Assembly: GCA_949451605.1 (NCBI GenBank)
Contig: CASTSB010000002.1
Span: 46,654 to 110,653, forward strand
DNA length: 64,000 bases
DNA from: an uncultured Bacilli bacterium
GTDB taxonomy: Bacteria; Bacillota_I; Bacilli_A; RF39; UBA660
Direction: 5' to 3'
Positions 39,438 through 62,880 of the stretch are shown here, in pieces (position 1 is the first letter of the stretch; every line of letters starts with the position of its first letter). The notes beneath the pieces are model-generated. The model did no database searches and was not told the origin of the DNA. It saw nothing but the letters and a program-made list of their open reading frames with translations. A program made the translations under genes and the position numbers.

Positions 39438-39561
39438 TCACATTATGAATAATATTAAAATTAAAATCTATCAAAAAAACTAGACAATTAGAGAAATTCT
39501 TGTTATACTAATAACGCATTTAATTACTATGACTTAATGTCATGGCGGAAGGAGTGAAAGA

Positions 39562-44044: not shown

Positions 44045-46534
44045 ATGAAATTTTTAAGAAAATTATTTGATCATGAATATAAAGAATTAAAAAGGTTCGA
44101 AATATTAGCTAATAAAATCATGGATTTAGATGAAGAATATTCTAAATTGACTGATACAGAATTACAAAACAAAACTGAAGAATTTAAAGAACGTCTACAA
44201 AAAGGTGAAACTTTAGATGATATCTTGGTTGAAGCATTTGCTACAGCTCGTGAAGCTTCTTTCCGTGTTATAGGAGAAAAACATTACTTTGTCCAAATAC
44301 TAGGTGGACTTGCAATTCATTTTGGAAATATTGCTGAAATGAAAACAGGTGAAGGAAAAACTTTAACCAGTGTATTACCAGCATACCTAAATGCTCTATC
44401 AGGAGAAGGAGTTCATATTATTACTGTAAATGAATACCTAGCTGGAAGAGATGCTGAATGGATGGGTGGAATTCATAGATTCTTAGGCCTTACAGTTGGT
44501 GTTAATGGAAGAGATTTAACTCCTACAGAAAAACAAGAGGCTTATAATTGCGATATATTATATTCAACAAATAATGAAATTGGTTTTGATTATTTAAGAG
44601 ATAACATGGTTGTTAGAAAAGAGGAAAGAGTTCAAAGAAGATTAAATTTTGCCATAATCGATGAAGTGGATTCTGTTCTAATAGATGAAGCAAGAACTCC
44701 TTTAATTATTTCTGGTGGAGAAATGAAAGCAGCTAATTTATATATTGATGCTGACAAATTTGCTAAAAGTTTAAAAGAAGAAAAAGACTTTATTTATGAT
44801 GAAAAAACAAAAAGTGTTAATTTAACTGAATCTGGATCTGATAAAGCAGAAAAAATGTTTCATATAAACAATTTATATGATATTGAAAATGCAACTTTAT
44901 TACACTTTGTAAATCAAGCATTAAAAGCTAATTATTCAATGAGAAATGATGTTGATTACGTAGTTCAAGATGGAGAAGTAGTAATAGTAGATCAATTTAC
45001 TGGTCGTCTACAAAAAGGACGTGCTTATTCTGATGGTCTTCATCAAGCAATTGAAGCAAAAGAAGGCGTACAAATTAATCAAGAAACAAAAACCCTAGCA
45101 ACTATTACTTTCCAAAATCTATTTAGAATGTATAAAAAATTATCTGGAATGACTGGTACAGCTAAAACAGAAGAAGAAGAATTTAGAAACATCTATAATA
45201 TGTATGTAATTGAAATCCCAACAAATAAAGAAGTTATAAGAATTGATGCACCAGATCTTGTATATGCAACTAAAGAGGCCAAATATAAAGCAATTGTTGA
45301 ATTTGTAAAAGATAAATATGAACATGGTCAACCTGTATTAATTGGTACAATCGCAATAGAAAGTAGTGAATTAATAAGTAATCTATTAAAACAAGCTCAT
45401 ATTCCACATGAAATATTAAATGCTAAAAATCATGCGCGTGAAGCAGAAATTATTTCAAAAATTGGACAAAATAAATCTGTAACTATCGCTACAAATATGG
45501 CAGGTCGTGGTACTGATATTAAACTATCAGATGAAATAAAAAAACTAGGAGGTCTATGTGTTGTAGGTACAGAACGTCATGAATCACGCCGTATCGATAA
45601 CCAATTACGTGGACGTTCAGGTCGTCAAGGAGATCCTGGTTATACTCAATTCTTTGTTTCTATGAAAGATGATCTTATGGTTAGATTTGGTTCAGATAGA
45701 ATCGGCGATATGATGAAAAACTTAGGACTTGGAGATCAAGCAATCCAAAGTAAAACATTTACAAATTCTATTGGAACAGCTCAAAAAAGAGTTGAGGGAA
45801 ACAATTTTGATATAAGAAAATCTTTACTTCAATATGATGATGTTATGAATAATCAAAGAGAAATAATTTATGAAAAAAGAAATAAAATTTTAGATAATGA
45901 TAGTATTTATTCAATGGTTACCAATACATTTAGAAATCATATAGAAGATTTAGTAAAATCTCACTTAGCACCAGAAGATTATTTAACTGACAGTGATTTA
46001 GAAGAAATAACTGAATTTGCCAATGAGAATTTACTAAAAAAAGATATAAAAATATCAGAAATAAAAGATTTATCACCAGAAGAAATTATTGATAAATTAT
46101 CAAAACAGTTAATAACAGAATATGAAGATAAAATAAAAGATGTACCAAAAGAAATTTCTAATGAATTTGAAAAAGTAATTACACTACAAGTACTTGATAA
46201 TTACTGGATGGAGCATATAAATACTATGTCACACTTAAGAGAAGGAATTCATTTAAGAGGTTATGCTCAAGAAGATCCATTAAGAGCATATACAATGGAA
46301 GGTTTTGAACTTTTTGATTCAATGCTTCAAAAAGTTGATAAAGATATTTGTATATTCTTATCAAAAGCAGAAATAAGACAAAATATAGAAAGAAAAGAAA
46401 CAACAAAAAAACAAATAACTAATGATACTGAATCAAGAGATACAAAAAAAACAAAGAAGAGCAAAAAAATTGGTAGAAATGAACCATGTCCTTGTGGAAG
46501 TGGAAAGAAATATAAGCAATGTTGCGGAAAGTAG
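44045..46534 (+). CDS. secA: preprotein translocase ATPase SecA
   Basis: 829 aa. DEAD-like motor motifs. C-terminal zinc finger CPCGSGKKYKQCCG. Confidence 0.95.
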   Translation: MKFLRKLFDHEYKELKRFEILANKIMDLDEEYSKLTDTELQNKTEEFKERLQKGETLDDILVEAFATAREASFRVIGEKHYFVQILGGLAIHFGNIAEMKTGEGKTLTSVLPAYLNALSGEGVHIITVNEYLAGRDAEWMGGIHRFLGLTVGVNGRDLTPTEKQEAYNCDILYSTNNEIGFDYLRDNMVVRKEERVQRRLNFAIIDEVDSVLIDEARTPLIISGGEMKAANLYIDADKFAKSLKEEKDFIYDEKTKSVNLTESGSDKAEKMFHINNLYDIENATLLHFVNQALKANYSMRNDVDYVVQDGEVVIVDQFTGRLQKGRAYSDGLHQAIEAKEGVQINQETKTLATITFQNLFRMYKKLSGMTGTAKTEEEEFRNIYNMYVIEIPTNKEVIRIDAPDLVYATKEAKYKAIVEFVKDKYEHGQPVLIGTIAIESSELISNLLKQAHIPHEILNAKNHAREAEIISKIGQNKSVTIATNMAGRGTDIKLSDEIKKLGGLCVVGTERHESRRIDNQLRGRSGRQGDPGYTQFFVSMKDDLMVRFGSDRIGDMMKNLGLGDQAIQSKTFTNSIGTAQKRVEGNNFDIRKSLLQYDDVMNNQREIIYEKRNKILDNDSIYSMVTNTFRNHIEDLVKSHLAPEDYLTDSDLEEITEFANENLLKKDIKISEIKDLSPEEIIDKLSKQLITEYEDKIKDVPKEISNEFEKVITLQVLDNYWMEHINTMSHLREGIHLRGYAQEDPLRAYTMEGFELFDSMLQKVDKDICIFLSKAEIRQNIERKETTKKQITNDTESRDTKKTKKSKKIGRNEPCPCGSGKKYKQCCGK

Positions 46535-46537
46535 ATT

Positions 46538-46565
46538 AAAGCCCATTTATAAGGGCTTTTCTTAT
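46538..46565 (+). terminator. rho-independent terminator after secA
   Basis: AAAGCCCatttataAGGGCTTTT. Confidence 0.65.
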
Positions 46566-46606
46566 AAACAAATTTATTAAAATGGCAAGGGAATTTTAGT
46601 TTTTAA

Positions 46607-46894
46607 TTGTCATTAATAATTTATGATATAATTAAAATATTAATAATTACTTTTGCCATAGGAGGTATATTTTATACAATAAAAATAAGTAATAGATATA
46701 ATAAAGATACCTCAACTAAAGAAGTTATAATTAGCCTTTTTAAGGAACATAATGCAATAGATTTAGAAAGTGGTATTAAAATTAAAGATTTACCTAATAA
46801 CATTTCAAAAAGCCTATATCTATTAATGATGGTTAAAGATAATACTCTTATTTTTAAGAAAGGTAAATATTATTTAAATGAAAAACTTAAGTAA
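46607..46894 (+). CDS. hypothetical small protein with N-terminal TM helix (island gene 1)
   Basis: 95 aa from a TTG start. No RBS confidently identified. Overlaps the next ORF by 17 nt. Confidence 0.3.
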   Translation: MSLIIYDIIKILIITFAIGGIFYTIKISNRYNKDTSTKEVIISLFKEHNAIDLESGIKIKDLPNNISKSLYLLMMVKDNTLIFKKGKYYLNEKLK

Positions 46895-47108
46895 ATATAA
46901 AAAATTATGGGAATATTTAGAAGCTAATAAAGAATTAGAATATAATCTATCTTTTGATGATATAAAAAATATTATTGGTTTCAATATTGATCATTCATTT
47001 TTATCTTATAAAAAAGAAGCCGAAATATATGGTTATAAAGTAAAAAAAATATCATTAAAAGAAAAAATGATAGTTTTTGAAAAAAACAAGAAATTAGGAG
47101 ATATATGA
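46878..47108 (+). CDS. hypothetical small protein (island gene 2)
   Basis: 76 aa. Overlaps both flanking ORFs, consistent with an operon. Confidence 0.3.
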   Translation: MKNLSKYKKLWEYLEANKELEYNLSFDDIKNIIGFNIDHSFLSYKKEAEIYGYKVKKISLKEKMIVFEKNKKLGDI

Positions 47109-47740
47109 AAAATAAAATTAGTGAAATAGGAGCCATATCCATGGCTTTATTGTATAGAAAGAAATATGCTGATTCAGAAATGATTAAATTGTCTTCAGCA
47201 AAAAAATTCAAAGAAACTATTGAAAGTAATTTACAAAGCATGCATAGTGAGTATAGTTGGTGCACAAATTATAAAGAAGAAAATGATTTATATTTTATAT
47301 GTAGAGATGAAAATAATATCTTATATGCAATTATTGACCCTTCAGCAAATATTCAAAGAGCCACAGAACATTATATTTACTGTTTGCCTACAGATATAAT
47401 TCAGGCTTCATTAATGAATAATGTCTTAGAAATTATTGGCTTAAAAGAAGAAAATAATAAGATTGTAGAAATAAGGGATGAAAAACTAGACAATGAATTA
47501 GAAAAAGTAATAAATCTAAATATAAAAGATCCTAATAATTTTTATAAGGAAGTTTTCTATAGTTTAAGCTTAGAGGAAAGAGATTTCTTAAAACAACAAT
47601 TTACTAATAAAAGCTGTTTCAATTGTATTAATGGTCTATGCAAATTACCATATAAAGAAAAAGGTGATAAAGGTTGCTGTATTGATTGGCAAAATCCATC
47701 AGAATTAGGTAAGAAATATATATTAAAAAAGAAAAGTTAA
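47105..47740 (+). CDS. hypothetical protein with C-terminal Cys-cluster (island gene 3)
   Basis: 211 aa. C-terminus CFNCINGLCKLPYKEKGDKGCCIDW suggests a metal-binding knuckle. Confidence 0.35.
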   Translation: MKNKISEIGAISMALLYRKKYADSEMIKLSSAKKFKETIESNLQSMHSEYSWCTNYKEENDLYFICRDENNILYAIIDPSANIQRATEHYIYCLPTDIIQASLMNNVLEIIGLKEENNKIVEIRDEKLDNELEKVINLNIKDPNNFYKEVFYSLSLEERDFLKQQFTNKSCFNCINGLCKLPYKEKGDKGCCIDWQNPSELGKKYILKKKS

Positions 47741-47770
47741 GAACATTATATGTTCTTTTATTTTTTTCTT
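47739..47770 (+). terminator. rho-independent terminator after island gene 3
   Basis: AAGAACATtatATGTTCTT followed by TTATTTTTTT. Confidence 0.55.
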
Positions 47771-47774
47771 AACA

Positions 47775-47788
47775 AGAACAAATGTTCG
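47775..47788 (+). promoter_or_regulatory. LexA (Cheo/SOS) box overlapping promoter of radical-SAM operon
   Basis: AGAACAAATGTTCG gives a perfect GAAC-N4-GTTC core, matching the Bacillus consensus CGAACATATGTTCG at 12 of 14 positions. It lies immediately upstream of TATAAT (47792-47797) and 26 nt before the ATG at 47814. Confidence 0.6.
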
Positions 47789-47813
47789 TGTTATAATTGA
47801 ATTGGTGATAACT

Positions 47814-49019
47814 ATGGATTTAAAAGAAAAACTAATTATATTAGCTGATAGCGCAAAATATGATGCCTCATGTTCATCCAGTGGCAGTTCAAGAAAAGAA
47901 GGTAAACTAGGCAATACAGCAGTGGCAGGTATATGCCATTCATTTGCTGCAGATGGTAGATGTATTTCTCTTCTAAAAATATTATTAACAAATTGTTGCA
48001 TTTACGATTGCAAATATTGTCCAAATAGACGAACTAATAATATTAAAAGAGCAACATTTACTAAAGAAGAAATATGTGAAATTACTATTAATTTTTATAG
48101 AAGAAATTACATAGAAGGACTTTTTATTTCTTCTGGTATTATAAAAAATCCTGATTACACAATGAATCTTATGATAGAAGCAATCTCGTTATTAAGAAGT
48201 AAATATCATTTTGGTGGATATATACATGCAAAAGCTATTCCCGGAGCAAGTGAGTATCTTTTGAAAAAACTAGGTAATCTTGTTGATAGATTAAGTGCCA
48301 ATGTAGAACTACCAACTGATGAAGGGTTAAAACTATTAGCTCCTAATAAAGATAATAGAAAAGTAGATAAAATAATGGATTATGTTCATAAAAACAGAAC
48401 AAATAAATTTGTCCCAGCAGGACAAAGCACCCAGATGATTATAGGAGCAACAAAGGAGACGGACTTAGAAATAATGTCAAAAAGCTCTACTATGTATAAT
48501 AAACATGAATTAAAAAGAGTTTTTTATTCTGCTTATATTCCTGTAAATAAAGATAAACTTTTACCAACGCTCCAAACGCCACCACTATTAAGAGAAAATA
48601 GACTATACCAAGCAGACTGGCTATTAAGATATTATAATTTTAAAGTTGAAGATATTTTAGATGAGAAAAATCCAAATTTTAATCTTTTACTAGATCCGAA
48701 GGCCTCTTGGGCTTTAAAACATTTAAATGAATTTCCAAAAGAGATAAATAGCTGTTCATTTAATGATCTTTTAAAAATACCAGGTATAGGAGTTACTTCT
48801 GCGAAAAGAATAATTTCTTCACGAAAATATTTTAAAATTACATTTAATGATTTGAAGAAAATGGGGATTGTTTTAAAAAGGGCAAAGTATTTTATCACAT
48901 GTAATAATAAGTATTTTACAGATAGCACATTCTTTAATAAAAATATTATAGAAAGAAATTTAATATTAGAAGACAAAGTAAAAAAAGAATCTAATATTGA
49001 ACAATTAGCTTTATTTTAA
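47814..49019 (+). CDS. putative DNA modification/repair radical SAM protein with HhH (TIGR03916-like)
   Basis: CIYDCKYC cluster (CxxxCxxC). C-terminal helix-hairpin-helix LLKIPGIGVTSAKRII. Start at the ATG after RBS GGTGAT; the track ORF begins 12 nt upstream. Confidence 0.7.
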   Translation: MDLKEKLIILADSAKYDASCSSSGSSRKEGKLGNTAVAGICHSFAADGRCISLLKILLTNCCIYDCKYCPNRRTNNIKRATFTKEEICEITINFYRRNYIEGLFISSGIIKNPDYTMNLMIEAISLLRSKYHFGGYIHAKAIPGASEYLLKKLGNLVDRLSANVELPTDEGLKLLAPNKDNRKVDKIMDYVHKNRTNKFVPAGQSTQMIIGATKETDLEIMSKSSTMYNKHELKRVFYSAYIPVNKDKLLPTLQTPPLLRENRLYQADWLLRYYNFKVEDILDEKNPNFNLLLDPKASWALKHLNEFPKEINSCSFNDLLKIPGIGVTSAKRIISSRKYFKITFNDLKKMGIVLKRAKYFITCNNKYFTDSTFFNKNIIERNLILEDKVKKESNIEQLALF

Positions 49020-49786
49020 TGAAAAAAAGTAATTATATTTATCTATATGATAATGATTTTATATCTCTATTAAGTCTGATAAAAATACTTATAACGAAGA
49101 AAGTAATTCCATGTAATATAAAACCTAATACATATACTCCTTCACTTTTTGAAGAGACATTTAAAGAACAAATATCCGAAAATGAAATCATTATAAAAGA
49201 AATAATAGATGCGACTTCATTCTATATTCTTAACACAATGTATAAAATATTTCTATCTGAGCACAATGATAAAGAGATAATAATCTACTACTTTTTTGTT
49301 CATGCCTTAAAATATCAAAATAAAATTTATTATATGCGTAATTTAAAAAGTGTTACTGAGGCATTAAAAATTGAAAAATTTGTAGAACATGAAACACATA
49401 AATTTAAAGGATTTCTTAGGTTTAAGGAATTAAAAGGTGGAATTTTGTATGCCACTATAGAACCGGATAATAACATAATTCTTTTCCTTTCTAAACATTT
49501 TAAACAAAGACTCCAAAATGAATTTTGGATTATAGAAGATAAAAAAAGACAATTAATAAGCATATATGATAAAAATAATTTTTATATTACTTCTTCAGAA
49601 TGCTTCAATATTTTAGATAAAGAGTTATCAGAAGCTGAAGAAGATATAGAAAACTTATGGAAAAACTTTTACAAAACAATTGCAATAAAAGAAAGAACTA
49701 ATTATAGATGTCGTATGAATTTTATGCCAAAAAAATACTGGAAATATATTATAGAAATGAGTGATAAAAATGAAAATAGTTATTAG
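49019..49786 (+). CDS. TIGR03915/DUF4130-like putative DNA metabolism protein (partner of the radical SAM protein)
   Basis: N-terminus IYLYDNDFISLLSLI...PSLFEE matches my recollection of the family N-terminus (IYxYDGxFEGLLTxIF...QxSLF). Translationally coupled (TAATG) to the upstream gene. Confidence 0.55.
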   Translation: MKKSNYIYLYDNDFISLLSLIKILITKKVIPCNIKPNTYTPSLFEETFKEQISENEIIIKEIIDATSFYILNTMYKIFLSEHNDKEIIIYYFFVHALKYQNKIYYMRNLKSVTEALKIEKFVEHETHKFKGFLRFKELKGGILYATIEPDNNIILFLSKHFKQRLQNEFWIIEDKKRQLISIYDKNNFYITSSECFNILDKELSEAEEDIENLWKNFYKTIAIKERTNYRCRMNFMPKKYWKYIIEMSDKNENSY

Positions 49787-51320
49787 TGGTCAAGAACTAC
49801 AAGAAAAGATGACTTTTGCAGTTAATTTATTATGTAATACAGTAAAAAGTACCATTGGACCCAAGGGAAGCAATATTATAATAGATCATTCTGCCTTTAG
49901 TCCTTTTATTACAAATGATGGAGTAACAATAGCACAAAATATAGAAAGTGAAGATCAAATTACCAATACCATTTTGGAATTAGCAAAAGAAGCTTCAATA
50001 AAGACTAATTATTTGGTAGGAGATGGTACAACCACAACATTAGTTTTACTACAAGTAATTTTCAATGAAGGATTAAAAGAAATAAATAATGGAAAAAATC
50101 CTATTATTTTAAAAAAAGAGCTTGAAGAAAGTTTATCAAAAATAATAATAAAAATAAAAGAAGAAAGTAAAAAATCTACACTCAAAGATTTAGAAAATAT
50201 TGCTTTGACGTCTTCTAGTTCTAAAGAAATAGCCAAAATAATTACAGAAGCTTTTAAAATAACTAAAAATAAAGAGTCAATTAAGATTATAGAACAAGAA
50301 AATAATTCCATTAACTTAATTTATAAAAAAGGATATTCAATAGATACACTATTAGCTTCTCCTTATTTTCTGGCAGATAAAAAAGAGATATCAGAAGAAA
50401 ATTTATCTGTTATATTGATTAATAATTATATTCAAGAAATAGAAGAAATTTCAATTTATTTAAGTGATGCTATTACAAATAAAAAATCTTTAATAGTTTT
50501 AGCAGAGGATTATTCTGAATTGGTAATAAATGAAGTTTTATCAATAAACGAATATAGTAATAATAAAATATACTTGCTTAAAATACCAGAATATGGAAAA
50601 AACAAATATGATTTGTTAAAAGATTTAGAACTAATAACAAAAGCTAAAATAATAAACGATTTAGCAAATATAAGTTTTGAAAATTTAGGATTAATAGAAA
50701 ATATAAAAATTGATTGTTCACAAAGCACATTTTATTTTAATGAAAATAATAAAATTAATGAAAAAATAAAAGAGCTTAAGTCTCTTTTTGATAATACTGA
50801 AGAATATAATGAATATTTAGCCAAAAGAATATCAATGTTAGAAACAGGTATTATTGAAATTCTTATTGGAGCACCAACTATTACAGAAAGAAGAGAAAAG
50901 AAAATGAGAGCAGATGATTGCTTATGTGCAATTAACTCTGCAAAAGATGGTTTTGTTACTGGTAGTGGATTAACTTTGTATAAAATTTCAGATAGTTTTC
51001 AAAAAGAAAATCAATCAATTTCTAATATTTTACTAAAAGCACTACAAGAGCCTTTTAAAGAGATAATGTTTAATTCAGGTCTAGATTATAAAGAAATTAT
51101 TTCAGAAATCAAATTATCCAATTATCAAAAAGTTTATAATGTTATAAGCGAGAAATTCGAAAATATAGCTAGTTCAACTGTTAAGGATCCTACAAAAGTA
51201 GTAATTGACTCATTAATTAATGCAACTTCAATAGCTAGTATTTTATTAACAACCACTTCCTTAATAGTTAATGAATACAAAAATAATACCAATAAAATAA
51301 ATGACTTCAATGATTTATAA
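49761..51320 (+). CDS. highly divergent orphan chaperonin Cpn60/GroEL paralog (no GroES partner)
   Basis: Collinear with GroEL by eye: GPKGSNIIIDHSAFSPFITNDGVTIAQNIESEDQ ([34 protein letters not shown]), GDGTTTTLVL (GDGTTTATVL), SPYFLADKKEISE, LIVLAEDYS, ERREKKMRADDCLCAINSAKDGFVTGSGLTL ([32 protein letters not shown]). Lacks the GGM tail. Overlaps the upstream gene. Confidence 0.7.
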   Translation: MIKMKIVISGQELQEKMTFAVNLLCNTVKSTIGPKGSNIIIDHSAFSPFITNDGVTIAQNIESEDQITNTILELAKEASIKTNYLVGDGTTTTLVLLQVIFNEGLKEINNGKNPIILKKELEESLSKIIIKIKEESKKSTLKDLENIALTSSSSKEIAKIITEAFKITKNKESIKIIEQENNSINLIYKKGYSIDTLLASPYFLADKKEISEENLSVILINNYIQEIEEISIYLSDAITNKKSLIVLAEDYSELVINEVLSINEYSNNKIYLLKIPEYGKNKYDLLKDLELITKAKIINDLANISFENLGLIENIKIDCSQSTFYFNENNKINEKIKELKSLFDNTEEYNEYLAKRISMLETGIIEILIGAPTITERREKKMRADDCLCAINSAKDGFVTGSGLTLYKISDSFQKENQSISNILLKALQEPFKEIMFNSGLDYKEIISEIKLSNYQKVYNVISEKFENIASSTVKDPTKVVIDSLINATSIASILLTTTSLIVNEYKNNTNKINDFNDL

Positions 51321-51364
51321 TTATTGTATAATATAATAAAAGTAGTGATTAAAGGAGAATAATT

Positions 51365-52213
51365 ATGGCTGTAGAAGTTACAATAAAGAATAAAAGTTTA
51401 TTTAAAAGAAAATTAAATATAAAAGATTTAATATTAGATGGTATACGTTATGGAATAATGGATGAAGCTTTTAGATTAGAAGAAAATAAAATTGGTGAAA
51501 ATACTGTTTTATTTGATAAGCAACATGTTTGTAGAGGATTTGAAGTATCTTTGAATAATAATGAAATCTTTCTAAGAATGCCTCTTCCAACATCTACCAA
51601 AGATATAGAATTTTTTTACAACTATATTACTAAAATTTGTAAAAAACTTAATACAAAAAAATTTATAAGAGAAAATGAAACAGTATTTATCGATCAAATA
51701 GAAGAATTTATCAACTTTGATATTGAAACTAGTAAAAATGCTTTAAAACAAATGCAAACAAAAATAGAATCAGAAGAAATGAATAATATGTACTTGTTCG
51801 GAGCAGTAAATCCAATTTGCTTAGGAAAAGAAGAAATAGAAAAGATAAACAATAGTCCAAGAAACCTTGGAGAATTACTTAATAGTATTCAAACCAAAGA
51901 TGTATATTACGCAAAGCCAAGTATCTATCAAAAAAAAGATGAATCATTTTTTGGAGTTTTTGTATTAACATCAGATGTTCCAACAGTATTACCATATATA
52001 CCTAAACTTATAATGCCTAATAAAGAAATAAAGGTAAATAATTGGTATTTATGTTTCGTTGTAAAAGATCAAATGTTAGGGCAAATAGCCTATGATGATT
52101 TTACTTCTAATTTAAAAGATGAAGATTCTTATGATAGTGAACATTTTGTAATTAATCTAAATGAAAAGATTATAAAAGATTATTTAGAAAAATATAGAAC
52201 AGAAATAGACTAA
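51365..52213 (+). CDS. hypothetical protein, last gene of SOS-box operon
   Basis: 282 aa. RBS AAAGGAGAATAATT before the ATG. No recognisable motif. Confidence 0.35.
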   Translation: MAVEVTIKNKSLFKRKLNIKDLILDGIRYGIMDEAFRLEENKIGENTVLFDKQHVCRGFEVSLNNNEIFLRMPLPTSTKDIEFFYNYITKICKKLNTKKFIRENETVFIDQIEEFINFDIETSKNALKQMQTKIESEEMNNMYLFGAVNPICLGKEEIEKINNSPRNLGELLNSIQTKDVYYAKPSIYQKKDESFFGVFVLTSDVPTVLPYIPKLIMPNKEIKVNNWYLCFVVKDQMLGQIAYDDFTSNLKDEDSYDSEHFVINLNEKIIKDYLEKYRTEID

Positions 52214-52230
52214 TAATTAGTCTATTTTTG
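52205..52230 (+). terminator. terminator at end of island operon
   Basis: ATAGACTAATaATTAGTCTAT palindrome overlapping the stop codon, followed by TTTTTG. Confidence 0.45.
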
Positions 52231-52444
52231 TATAAAAAAAGAACCCCCTGAATAGGAGCTCCATCTATTTACAGAGGATCTTCACACTACATAGTGAACC
52301 TTCCTCATTTATAATATATGTAAAAACATAAAAAATATACACAATAAAATTTTCCAAACTTTCAAATTGTAAAAATTTATGCTATTCTTAAATTAAATAG
52401 TATTTTAAAAACTAAAAGAGCAATAATAATATAAGGAGAAAATA

Positions 52445-53540
52445 ATGGAAAAAAAAGATTTAGAAAAAATAATTAATTATAATATTGAAACGATAAATAG
52501 TTTATGGAGGTCACTTTGACATAGATTCCAAAAAACAAAAAGTAAAAGATTTAGAACAAATTACTGCAAACCAAAATTTTTGGAATAATAGGTTAGAAGC
52601 CGAAAAAGTTTTAAAAGAAATTACAGAGTTAAAAAACATTATTAATCAAGTTTCTGACTTAAAAATAAAATTAATTGATAATAAAGATTTTTTAGAAATA
52701 ATTGATGAAAAAGATGTAGAATTATTTTCTCAATTAGAAAAAACAATTAATGAAGATAATAAGATAGTAGAAGACTTGAATTTGCTATTACTTTTAAGCG
52801 GACCTTATGACAAAAACGACTGTATTTTAGAAATTCATTCGGGAGCTGGTGGAACTGAAGCTTGTGATTGGGCAAATATGATATATAGAATGTATCAAAG
52901 ATGGTGTGAAAAGAAAAAATATAAAATTGAAATTCTAGATTATCAAACTGGTGAAGAAGCTGGAATTAAAAGTGTGTCATTAAAAATAAAAGGTTTAAAT
53001 GCCTATGGATATTTAAAAAATGAGAAAGGTGTACATAGATTAGTTCGATTATCTCCTTTTGATTCAAATAATAGAAGACATACTTCATTTGCATCTGTAG
53101 AAGTAACACCAGACATAGAAGTTGATAATTCTATAGAAATAGATGAAAAAGACTTAAAAATCGATGTATATAGATCTACAGGAGCTGGAGGACAAGGAGT
53201 AAATACAACAGATTCAGCAGTAAGAGTTACCCATTTGCCTACTAAAATAGTTGTTACATGTCAAAATGAAAGAAGTCAAATTCAAAATAAAGAGCAAGCA
53301 ATAAAAGTATTAAAAAGTAAATTATTAGTAAAAAAACTTGAAGAGCAAGCAAAAGAAATAAATGCTATAAAGGGTGAACAAATGAATATTGAATTTGGCT
53401 CTCAAATAAGAAGTTATGTAATGCATCCTTATTCTTTAGTAAAAGACCACAGAACTAATGAAGAAACAAGCGATGTATTCAAAGTTTTAGATGGTGAGAT
53501 AGATAAATTTATTGAAAGTAATTTAAAGAAAGGGTTATAA
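52445..53540 (+). CDS. prfB: peptide chain release factor 2 (programmed +1 frameshift)
   Basis: Upstream frame MEKKDLEKIINYNIETINSLWRSL ends at CTT TGA C. The +1 frame continues DIDSKKQKVKDLEQITANQNFWNN...LLLLSGPYDKNDCILEIHSGAGGTEACDW and includes the GGQ motif, collinear with B. subtilis RF2. The track ORF 52776..53540 is the downstream part. The start coordinate is uncertain by 1 nt because of my counting across homopolymer runs. Confidence 0.85.
52514..52520 (+). promoter_or_regulatory. prfB autoregulatory +1 frameshift site CTT TGA C with upstream SD-like GGAGG
   Basis: TGGAGGTCACTTTGAC shows the canonical RF2 recoding signal: internal Shine-Dalgarno, CUU-UGA-C slippery stop with a C after the stop. 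Confidence 0.8.
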
Positions 53541-60425: not shown

Positions 60426-60924
60426 AAAGAAAAATCTCTTTATCCTTTTATCTACCACTAAATCTGCCCGATAAATACTTATCTTTTTGCGAAATTTTAA
60501 GACTATACCTTTTGAAACCTTTTTGATTTTGTTCTTCGTAATATCTTTTTCTTCTTCAGACTTTTATTTCTTTTTTAGTAGTTGTAAAATTTATCTTTGT
60601 CTATTTGGTTAACATCCTCTCTATCTTTTTTTATTTAGTTTCAACTATTTTGAACCTAATCTTCTAATCGCCTAATTCTCAATCTATTTAAATATAGGCT
60701 TATCATATCATTTATATAGATAGAAAAAACAATCTAAACATATTTTGTAAAATATTAAATTTTGTATAAGACAGAAATAAAAGATAATAATAAAACAGAG
60801 AAAGATAAGTTTAGCTTAATTACTAATAAGTATTATTGTTTTATATAACAAGAAATGATAAAATATAGTATCGAAATAAAATCATTTTTAATTAACAAAT
60901 TGAAAACAGAAAGTAGGAGATATT

Positions 60925-62880
60925 TTGTTTAAAATAGTTTCAAAATATAAGCCAAGTGGAGATCAACCTAAGGCAATCAAAGAACTTGTAGATGGTATTA
61001 ATTCAGGAAAAAAGGAACAAGTACTACTTGGTGCTACAGGTACTGGAAAAACCTTTACTATGGCTAATGTAATAGCGACTGTTAATAAGCCAACACTTAT
61101 ACTTGCACATAATAAAACTCTTGCAGGACAATTATATTCTGAATTAAAAGAAATATTTCCAGAAAATAGAGTAGAATATTTTGTCTCATATTACGATTAT
61201 TATCAACCAGAAGCTTATGTACCATCAACTGATACTTATATTGAAAAAGACTCATCTATAAATGATGAAATAGATGAATTGCGTCATGCTGCAACAAGTG
61301 CGCTACTTAGTAGAGATGATGTAATAGTAGTATCAAGTGTATCTTGTATTTATGGTATAGGAGAAGTAGAAGAATATAAAAATAAAATGTTAACTCTTTC
61401 TGTTGGAGATACAATAGATAGAAATGAGATGTTAGTTAAGTTAGTTGAAATGCTTTATGAACGCAATGACTTTGATTTTAAACGTGGTACTTTTAGAGTT
61501 AGAGGAGATGTTGTAGAAATTATACCTGCTAACCAAAACACAATAGGTTATAGAATTGAATTCTTTGATAATGAAATTGATAGAATAAGTGAAGTTGATA
61601 CTTTAACTGGTGTAATTACTAATAATTTAAAAAATATTTCAATTTTTCCAGCAAGTCACTTCGTTGTTAGTGATGAAAAACTGCAAGCTGCTTTAGTTAG
61701 AATAAAAAACGAATTAGAAGAAAGATTAGCTGAGTTAAAAGATGAGAACAAATTAGTAGCAGCTGAAAGGTTAGAGCAAAGAACAAATTATGACTTAGAA
61801 ATGTTAGAAGAAACTGGTTTCTGCTCTGGTATTGAAAATTATTCTGCACCTATGGCTGGAAGAAAAACAGGCGAAACGCCAGTAACGCTAATGGATTTCT
61901 TTCCAAAAGATTACTTACTTTTTGTTGATGAATCACATGTTACTTTACCACAAGTAAGAGGTATGTATAATGGAGATAGAGCAAGAAAGATGAATCTTGT
62001 TGAGTATGGTTTTAGGCTTCCAAGTGCACTAGATAATAGACCTTTGAAATATGATGAGTTTGAAAAGAAGATTAATCAAGCTATTTATGTTTCAGCTACT
62101 CCTGGAGACTTAGAGTTAGAACACACTAACAATACTTATGTTGAACAAATAATTCGTCCAACAGGATTGCTAGATCCAACTATAGAAGTAAGAAAAACAG
62201 AAGGACAAATTGATGATTTAGTAGGCGAAATTAAAGAAAGAATGGCTAAAAATGAAAGGGTCCTTATTACAACTTTAACAATAAGAATGGCTGAAGAATT
62301 AACTAATTATTTAAAAGAACTGGATATAAAAGTAGCTTATCTTCACTCTGAAGTAAAAACATTAGAGCGAATGGAAATAATACATGATGTTCGTGCTGGA
62401 AAGTATGATGTTTTAGTAGGAATAAACTTATTAAGAGAAGGTTTAGATATTCCTGAAGTATCTTTAATAGCAATTTTAGATGCTGATAAAGAAGGATTTT
62501 TAAGAAGCAATAGAAGTTTAATTCAAACTATAGGAAGATGTGCCAGAAATGCAAATGGACATGTTATAATGTACGGAGATAAAATAACCGATTCCATGAA
62601 AAATGCAATAGAAGAAACAGCAAGAAGAAGAAGCATTCAAGAAAAATATAATGAAGAACATGGCATTATTCCTGAAACTATTAAGAAAGATATAAGAGAA
62701 GTTATTAGTAATAAAGATGAAAATAGAAAAACTAAAAAACCAAAACAAATAAGTAAAAAAGAAAAAGAACAAATAATAGAATCTATAGAGCAAGAAATGA
62801 GAGAAGCAGCTAAATCTCTTAATTTTGAAAGAGCAATGGAATTACGTGATATACTTTTTGAAATGAAAACAGGTAATTAG
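60925..62880 (+). CDS. uvrB: excinuclease ABC subunit B
   Basis: 651 aa. Walker [11 protein letters not shown], beta-hairpin, helicase motifs, C-terminal UVR domain ([10 protein letters not shown]). TTG start after RBS AGGAG. Confidence 0.95.

Follow-up and report, generated by a model that had tools for sequence, protein, structure and literature searches.

A three-gene operon, in which a radical SAM/helix-hairpin-helix protein (rSAM, family TIGR03916) and its DUF4130 partner are followed by a GroEL-derived chaperonin, is conserved as a unit in AT-rich gut Bacilli. It was analysed in a stretch of 64,000 nucleotides (nt), hereafter the window, from an uncultured Bacilli bacterium of the RF39 lineage (assembly GCA_949451605.1, contig CASTSB010000002.1, positions 46,654 to 110,653), where it lies with a fourth gene on the + strand at 47.7-52.2 kb, between secA and prfB. 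As read from the DNA, the operon appears to be driven by one promoter. A conserved palindrome of the LexA-operator type known from Firmicutes overlaps this promoter, and control by the SOS response, likely through LexA, is well supported by the sequences. The known part of this arrangement is the SOS-linked rSAM/DUF4130 system, and the new part is its third, chaperonin-derived component. The reading that we favour, with a probability of about one half, is that this component is a co-translated chaperonin paralogue dedicated to the rSAM/DUF4130 repair complex. A preliminary description of the locus, made by a model from the DNA letters and their open reading frames, holds as a whole for what it observed, with small corrections. 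Its interpretation is supported in part: the domain calls, the coupling of the genes, the link to a chaperonin and, most likely, the LexA-type control stand, but a four-gene module and a role in defence do not.

A three-gene unit conserved in gut Bacilli

The neighbourhood of Cpn60-like and TIGR03916 genes, for which no precedent had been known to the preliminary description, recurs far beyond the window: about 250 species genomes share the link, which is unbroken in every readable context. A search of 5.8 billion proteins returned more than 120 clusters of about 515 amino acids (aa) with 46-65% identity to the Cpn60-like query, and when each species was represented by a single genome, about 250 genomes proved to encode relatives. 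The best 80 of these are all uncultured metagenome-assembled genomes from the gut, with a mean G+C content of 26%, and carry the labels Bacilli, Tenericutes, Bacillota or Erysipelotrichaceae; four records labelled Muribaculaceae are probably mislabelled bins. The order rSAM, DUF4130, Cpn60-like is found in 76 of the 76 loci with enough upstream DNA, the other four of the 80 being cut by contig ends, and the pair of rSAM and TIGR03915 genes is present in all family loci. The junctions are just as regular: of 80 non-redundant loci, 78 have an rSAM stop that overlaps or abuts the DUF4130 start, and 79 have a DUF4130 stop that overlaps the Cpn60-like start. The Cpn60-like gene itself is present as one vertically conserved copy per genome, with no patchy distribution.

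When 1.84 billion cluster representatives were searched exhaustively with HMMER, the scores of family members formed a continuum that reached down to about 240 bits, and the same context can be followed along it. The Cpn60-like gene comes after rSAM and DUF4130 in P0171 (35% identity) and after DUF4130 in P0177 (34%), P0159 (42%) and P0181 (36%); in P0220 (35%), the preceding 50 nt encode the C-terminal DUF4130 motif NFMPKKYWK..EM, whose stop codon overlaps the ATG of the chaperonin-like gene. None of the family members, including eight clusters that were checked, bears a name in the source databases.

The surroundings of the operon, in turn, vary by clade and include prfB, uvrB-uvrA, a polysaccharide deacetylase gene, priA or an ABC transporter, while the genes 3' of the chaperonin, many of them convergent, belong to 56 clusters with no relation to one another; the conserved unit therefore consists of three genes. 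A conserved fourth gene was considered and rejected on account of these 56 clusters. The four-gene module of the preliminary description thus reduces to three: the DUF4299 gene is a feature of the window's own clade alone, at 65% identity or more, and follows the triad only in loci L001-L006. The fourth protein, then called unknown, does exist but belongs to a recognised family, since it matches PF14132 (DUF4299) with 78.7 bits against a cut-off of 31. Its gene is probably co-transcribed with the operon in the window and is a clade-specific passenger outside the conserved unit. A homologue of the DUF4299 protein, P0403 (56%), is encoded in an unrelated neighbourhood, among Imm33, DUF4026 and DUF1653 genes.

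Three further relatives, among them P0176 and P0192 near the boundary of the family, differ in context or architecture. P0176 (37%), which has a Cpn10 gene upstream, was considered as a lead to the housekeeping GroEL of this lineage but has no bearing on the triad genomes, as it belongs to a tiny group whose next relatives are ordinary Clostridia GroELs. The gene for P0192 (39%; L095, 2069-3634) lies between those for SSB and HU, beside HTH_26 and CxxCxxCC genes, in a phage- or plasmid-like context with neither GroES nor DUF4130. Finally, P0179, a protein of 1081 aa, contains two Cpn60-like stretches and may be a fusion of two chaperonin subunits in tandem.

A divergent GroEL paralogue

The third protein of the operon matches PF00118 with 152 bits (cut-off 34), and all NCBIfam GroEL models stay below their cut-offs on it (best model, 329 bits against 352; TIGR02348, 296 against 582). 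The models for chlamydial GroEL2 and GroEL3 score 89 and 75 bits, respectively, and PHROG 5725, annotated as "chaperonin groEL", matches with 325 bits. An AlphaFold2 (AF2) model of the monomer, with a pLDDT (predicted local distance difference test) of 84.9, can be superposed along its entire length on subunits of GroEL bound to GroES, with template-modelling (TM) scores of 0.85-0.88, at about 28% sequence identity, and the protein is accordingly modelled with the complete three-domain GroEL fold.

Conservation was examined by aligning 83 family sequences to E. coli GroEL, numbered so that the known residues D52, D87 and D398 fall in place. Among the residues for ATP binding and hydrolysis, T30, G32, D52, D87, G88, T89, T90, D398, N479 and D495 are invariant, P33 is kept in 82 of the 83, and the GDGTTT motif is retained in the family. 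In the substrate-binding groove, Y203, F204, L237, L259 and V263 remain hydrophobic. The R197-E386 pair and the inter-ring residues A109, R452 and E461 are not conserved, and the GGM tail is absent, the window protein ending in ...INEYKNNTNKINDFNDL. The family has signatures of its own, namely IIDHSxF and, at the C-terminus, ...INEYxNNxNKxNDYxEL. Its members are 58% identical to one another in the equatorial domain, 45% in the intermediate domain and 37% in the apical one. Residues 31-47, the family-specific stretch with the highest conservation, has low confidence in the monomer model and corresponds to the stem-loop that touches the neighbouring subunit in GroEL.

The gene also stands apart from the usual genetic context of groEL. 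The preliminary description had taken it for a divergent GroEL lacking GroES, which agrees both with the scores below the NCBIfam cut-offs and with tblastn searches (E<=1e-5) of about 80 loci, none of which has a GroES gene less than 10 kb away, the position upstream being occupied by DUF4130 instead. Heat-shock control was sought as a CIRCE inverted repeat with up to three mismatches, and none is present in the window. With a start codon located within the DUF4130 gene, the Cpn60-like gene also appears to lack room for a separate promoter.

The radical SAM enzyme and its DUF4130 partner

Searches with profile hidden Markov models bear out all the domain calls made beforehand, TIGR03916, TIGR03915/DUF4130 and PF00118 each passing its cut-off. 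Residues 3-400 of the rSAM protein match TIGR03916 with 610 bits (cut-off 343.5) and cover positions 1-414 of the 415 of the model; PF04055 adds a radical SAM match of 38.7 bits, and the cluster motif C62-IYD-C66-KY-C69 (C62-x3-C66-x2-C69) can be read from the translation. At the C-terminal side, a helix-hairpin-helix is indicated at residues 311-339 by HHH_3 and HHH matches of 23 and 18 bits, which are below the Pfam cut-offs. The rSAM protein is 70-90% identical across the family loci. In one of these, L147 (3034-4242; GCA_964492595.1), the rSAM gene was called as two pieces of 289 and 94 aa, perhaps through a frameshift, an error in the assembly or decay of this copy.

The partner matches TIGR03915 with 205 bits (cut-off 112) and PF13566 (DUF4130) with 153 bits (cut-off 27). 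It consists of DUF4130 only and is devoid of the fusion to uracil-DNA glycosylase (UDG) described by TIGR03914; a separate UDG gene is found near the operon in two lineages only. This UDG-like fusion is optional in the family, although it is present in all Verrucomicrobia homologues (PMC4951493). A study using AlphaFold3 (AF3) predicts an rSAM/DUF4130 heterodimer in which DUF4130 is the non-catalytic, nucleic-acid-binding partner (bioRxiv 10.64898/2026.08.19.745780).

A LexA-type operator on the promoter of the operon

The sigma-70-type promoter predicted upstream of the rSAM gene is the best match in the region 46400-52900, with 11 of 12 consensus positions and an extended -10 element. Its spacer is filled, from the -35 to the extended -10 element, by AGAACAAATGTTCG, so that the perfect Firmicute LexA (Cheo) box of the preliminary description is indeed there. 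Its placement on the promoter was likewise right, but not its placement on the -10 element, which the box abuts while occupying the spacer. GAAC-N4-GTTC has two copies in the 64 kb, where 0.15 would be expected, and the second one (24062) is intragenic.

Just upstream of this promoter, a hairpin of the form AAGAACAT-TAT-ATGTTCTT, followed by a run of T, would end the upstream 211-aa gene and insulate the operon from upstream transcription. The terminator scan did not list it, as it has fewer than three G-C pairs. This hairpin is not a second Cheo box, because its GAAC and GTTC arms are 7 nt apart.

The operator has also been kept in related operons. TATAAT, followed by TGGTGAT and then by ATG, is retained in all orthologous loci, and a palindrome occupies a fixed position in their promoters: AAC-N4-GTT is exact in 68 of 74 loci and has one mismatch in the other six, so that the box expected upstream of related operons is there in 74 of 74 with at most one mismatch. 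The perfect GAAC..GTTC core, on the other hand, is confined to the window's clade. The consensus is C[GA]AAC-AAAT-GTTT[GA] and the usual form CAAAC-N4-GTTTG, with G at the first core position in 24 of the 68 exact operators and C at the last one in four. In most clades, the palindrome overlaps a TTTACA-type -35 element, 17 nt ahead of TATAAT.

Of 75 triad promoters, 31 (in L013-L090) have a second conserved motif, AAAAATT[ATG]CCA, which precedes the palindrome by 11-12 nt and the rSAM start by about 75-80 nt. The clade of the window does not have this motif, whose role may be that of an UP element or of a binding site for another factor. In other gut contigs, the similar sequence AAAAATTTGCCA directly adjoins the recA box described below (L173:1330-1345, L176:4268-4283 and L219:1054-1069).

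The same box type at SOS genes of similar organisms

A matrix built from the orthologous operator sites was scanned over 1.42 Mb and gave about eight other strong matches. One of them (L018:1178), on a triad-bearing contig, sits exactly between the TTGCAA and TATAAT elements of a gene whose product is a DinD equivalog (NF008573, 356 bits against 242). When metagenomes were scanned with this DinD protein, 79 copies were recovered from gut contigs of 24-33% G+C, and an exact AAC-N4-GTT is present within 160 nt upstream of 27 of them, clustered at -50 to -70, where a base-composition estimate predicts about four. In L155 and L156 (3001-4549), the dinD box ATAAACATATGTTTGA lies between TTGACA and TACAAT, and directly 3' is a lexA gene whose product is 56% identical to B. 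subtilis LexA and whose -35 element is overlapped by GCAAATTTATGTTTGACA. In L173 (431-2367), L176 (3001-5333) and L219, the gene after dinD is recA, and CATACATTTGTTTGA lies immediately 5' of the -35 element. The lexA and recA boxes have one mismatch each and come from gut contigs of 28-32% GC that are not assignable to triad-bearing genomes. Since the AAAC/GTTT-type box thus marks dinD, lexA and recA in similar organisms, LexA is the likely regulator of the operon, and the damage-inducible, LexA-type control put forward in the preliminary description is likely on the strength of both the conserved operator and the occurrence of the same box type at these three genes. CAAAC-N4-GTTTG would thereby be defined as an SOS operator variant for a large uncultured gut lineage, and the dinD-lexA and dinD-recA arrangements could help map the SOS regulon of these uncultured organisms. 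Another gut contig, of 114 kb (L214), carries five dinD/Bro-N copies within 7 kb.

A proposed chaperonin dedicated to the repair complex, and alternatives

According to the reading favoured here, LexA would repress the promoter by occupying the spacer in the window's clade, or the -35 element in most clades, and DNA damage would relieve this repression. The three proteins would then be made together through translational coupling. The rSAM enzyme and DUF4130 would form a nucleic-acid-acting complex, and the GroEL paralogue an ATP-hydrolysing ring specialised on one client: it may fold, hold or assemble the Fe-S TIM-barrel enzyme and its partner upon their sudden production, probably independently of the classical GroES cycle. 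The DUF4299 protein would be a local add-on in the window's clade.

Several observations weigh against this scheme. The apical domain, which binds clients, is the least conserved (37%), as opposed to 70-90% for its supposed client, and two groove positions have changed in the 83 aligned sequences, L234 to A or S and V264 to S or N. As for the regulation, tblastn searches with LexA and RecA of E. coli and B. subtilis gave no match in the window or in 90 loci, and no lexA gene was found on the triad-bearing contigs examined. In addition, no box is present in the uvrB promoters of the window, L007 and L008; in the window, the 500-nt T-rich gap (60426-60924) before uvrB (60925-62880) is free of LexA-type boxes, and nucleotide excision repair therefore seems to be outside the regulon.

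In a first alternative, the GroEL-derived ring would act in repair itself, either as an ATP-driven remodeller that opens the enzyme complex, say, or removes from DNA a protein that has stalled or become cross-linked, or as a scaffold that positions rSAM and DUF4130. Strict gene order and translational coupling are what one expects if the proteins are parts of a single machine. The surface with which a generalist chaperonin binds its clients drifts, in contrast to the invariant ATPase core, and the loss of R197-E386 and of the inter-ring allosteric contacts suggests an altered working cycle. However, with a net charge of -14, against -19 for E. coli GroEL, the protein is as acidic as an ordinary GroEL, which makes a direct DNA-handling role of the ring unlikely, and the five hydrophobic groove residues are kept as in a folding chaperone. 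To our knowledge, such a repair activity is known in no group I chaperonin, and we regard this alternative as unlikely.

One may also ask whether the gene is simply the housekeeping groEL, perhaps the only one, moved behind the operon by genome reduction, with GroES encoded elsewhere or lost. The genomes concerned are small and AT-rich, and a contig of 1.19 Mb (DAJPHG010000001.1) may be nearly a whole genome; the related Mollicutes are the one group known for the loss of GroE (PMC5810989, PMC13245659). The intact ATPase residues would fit as well. Against this stand the lack of GroES within 10 kb in the roughly 80 loci and of CIRCE in the window, the start inside DUF4130 with no promoter of its own, and an operator of the repressor type, which suits a gene needed on demand rather than constantly. 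Furthermore, a housekeeping GroEL is normally among the slowest-evolving proteins, whereas the Cpn60-like proteins share only about 43-65% identity over loci of the same lineage in which rSAM is 70-90% identical, and both the GGM tail and the inter-ring contacts have been lost. A housekeeping role is thus decidedly improbable. A further reading, in which the operon paralogue is the only chaperonin left after genome reduction, a GroES-independent ring with the LexA-repressed promoter as its only promoter, kept solely for the rSAM repair complex or by now a subunit of it, is unlikely, if less so.

The preliminary description had left room for a defence module, considered here as an anti-phage or abortive-infection system switched on by DNA damage. 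Damage-response and defence regulons do overlap in some bacteria (PMC12392091), and the distant relative P0192 has the phage- or plasmid-like context mentioned above. Nevertheless, PADLOC found no match for any of the seven proteins tested, PHROGs gave the generic phage groEL family only, and the viral contigs hold no member of the Cpn60-like family, their best chaperonin match having 32% identity. The neighbours are ordinary housekeeping genes (secA, prfB, uvrB, priA, tRNA synthetases) and the single copy per genome is vertically conserved, not patchy, so that the defence part of the earlier proposal finds no support and is very improbable indeed.

Relation to known systems

The rSAM/DUF4130 pair resembles the TIGR03916/TIGR03915 pairs of other bacteria in its full-length matches, its adjacent and overlapping genes and its upstream damage-response operator (PMC4951493, PMC12392091); it differs from them, often fused to UDG, by the lack of a UDG domain and by the GroEL paralogue invariably attached to it. 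LexA control of the pair, which could have been taken as new from the preliminary description, had already been predicted in Verrucomicrobia (PMC4951493), and in Acinetobacter the pair belongs to the damage-response genes (PMC12392091). The papers examined that name TIGR03916, TIGR03915, DUF4130 or DUF4299 mention no chaperonin, literature searches for a chaperonin or GroEL in connection with DUF4130, TIGR03916, radical SAM or RF39 yielded nothing relevant, and no published description of the three-part unit was found.

With canonical GroEL, the third protein would share the three-domain fold (TM 0.87), and it has the GDGTTT motif, the invariant D52, D87 and D398 and an acidic character; it differs in its identity of about 28% to solved GroELs, in scoring below every NCBIfam GroEL cut-off, in having no adjacent groES, CIRCE or GGM tail, and in the non-conserved R197-E386 and E461/R452/A109. 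Client-dedicated GroEL paralogues include mycobacterial GroEL1, Myxococcus GroEL2 and the extra GroELs of rhizobia and chlamydiae, and these are likewise duplicated and diverged group I chaperonins with an apparently narrow task. Unlike the gene studied here, they are usually neither translationally coupled to the genes of their clients nor preceded by an SOS-type operator. Chaperonins encoded by phages, such as gp146 of phage EL, are said to function without a co-chaperonin, and the stand-alone, divergent GroEL-like gene without GroES is similar in this respect, as is its match to PHROG 5725; the Cpn60-like family is, however, chromosomal and absent from the viral contigs. In E. coli, the SOS polymerase UmuC/Pol V depends on GroE (PMC6590174). 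This would be a parallel case of a damage-induced effector in need of a chaperonin, as proposed here, except that the chaperonin is the general heat-shock GroESL in E. coli and is encoded by a private gene inside the putatively damage-inducible operon in the gut Bacilli.

If the dedicated-chaperonin reading is true, the operon would clearly exemplify how, in nature, a group I chaperonin can be placed in the operon of its client and under SOS instead of heat-shock control, with a bearing on chaperonin specialisation and on the remnants of GroE in lineages near the Mollicutes. The invariably attached third component offers, in any case, a new experimental handle in the form of a defined three-protein set.

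Layout of the locus

The position between secA and prfB given beforehand is correct (Table 1), with three small open reading frames separating secA from the operon, and so is the tight coupling of the genes. The rSAM stop and the DUF4130 start share the TAATG at 49017-49021, with a 1-nt overlap, and the rSAM gene has its ribosome-binding site, GGTGAT, at 47804-47809. For the Cpn60-like gene, all homologues support the ATG at 49770 as the start, with GAGTGAT just 5', which gives an overlap of 17 nt with DUF4130; the 26-nt overlap reported earlier corresponds to a GTG farther 5', within the ribosome-binding site, and has been corrected. The DUF4299 gene follows after a gap of 44 nt, with AAAGGAG before 51365.

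Table 1. Features of the operon region and its flanks (positions within the window)
Feature	Positions	Strand	Description	Basis
secA	44045-46534		Upstream flank	
Hairpin (putative terminator)	47739-47767	+	Two arms around TAT, then a T-run	Read from sequence
Predicted promoter	47769-47797	+	Sigma-70 type; TTAACA (47769-47774), 17-nt spacer, TGtTATAAT (47789-47797)	
LexA-type (Cheo) operator, putative	47775-47788		AGAACAAATGTTCG; core 47776-47787, GAAC-N4-GTTC, perfect	
Radical SAM/helix-hairpin-helix gene	47814-49019	+	401 aa, TIGR03916	Profile match
DUF4130/TIGR03915 partner gene	49019-49786	+	255 aa	Profile match
Cpn60-like gene	49770-51320	+	516 aa, divergent group I chaperonin paralogue	PF00118
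DUF4299 gene	51365-52213	+	282 aa	PF14132
prfB	52445-53540		Downstream flank	

The three small genes between secA and the operon (95, 76 and 211 aa; 46607-47740) have no Pfam, NCBIfam, PADLOC or PHROG family and are kept in L001 and L002, and partly in L006. At the other end, no + strand terminator is recognisable after the DUF4299 gene. A terminator-like hairpin at 52240-52262 has a run of T on the - strand only, and the gap between it and prfB (52445), in which there is no - strand open reading frame of at least 50 aa, may encode a small - strand RNA; a scan of 52180-52800 against Rfam gave no match. The prfB gene has a classical programmed +1 frameshift site, GGAGG TCA CTT TGA C, at about 52507-52521. 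Elsewhere in the window, an L31-Firmicutes ribosomal-protein leader lies at 39527-39554 (RF03156, 34.3 bits against a gathering threshold of 33.3) and is the sole Rfam match.

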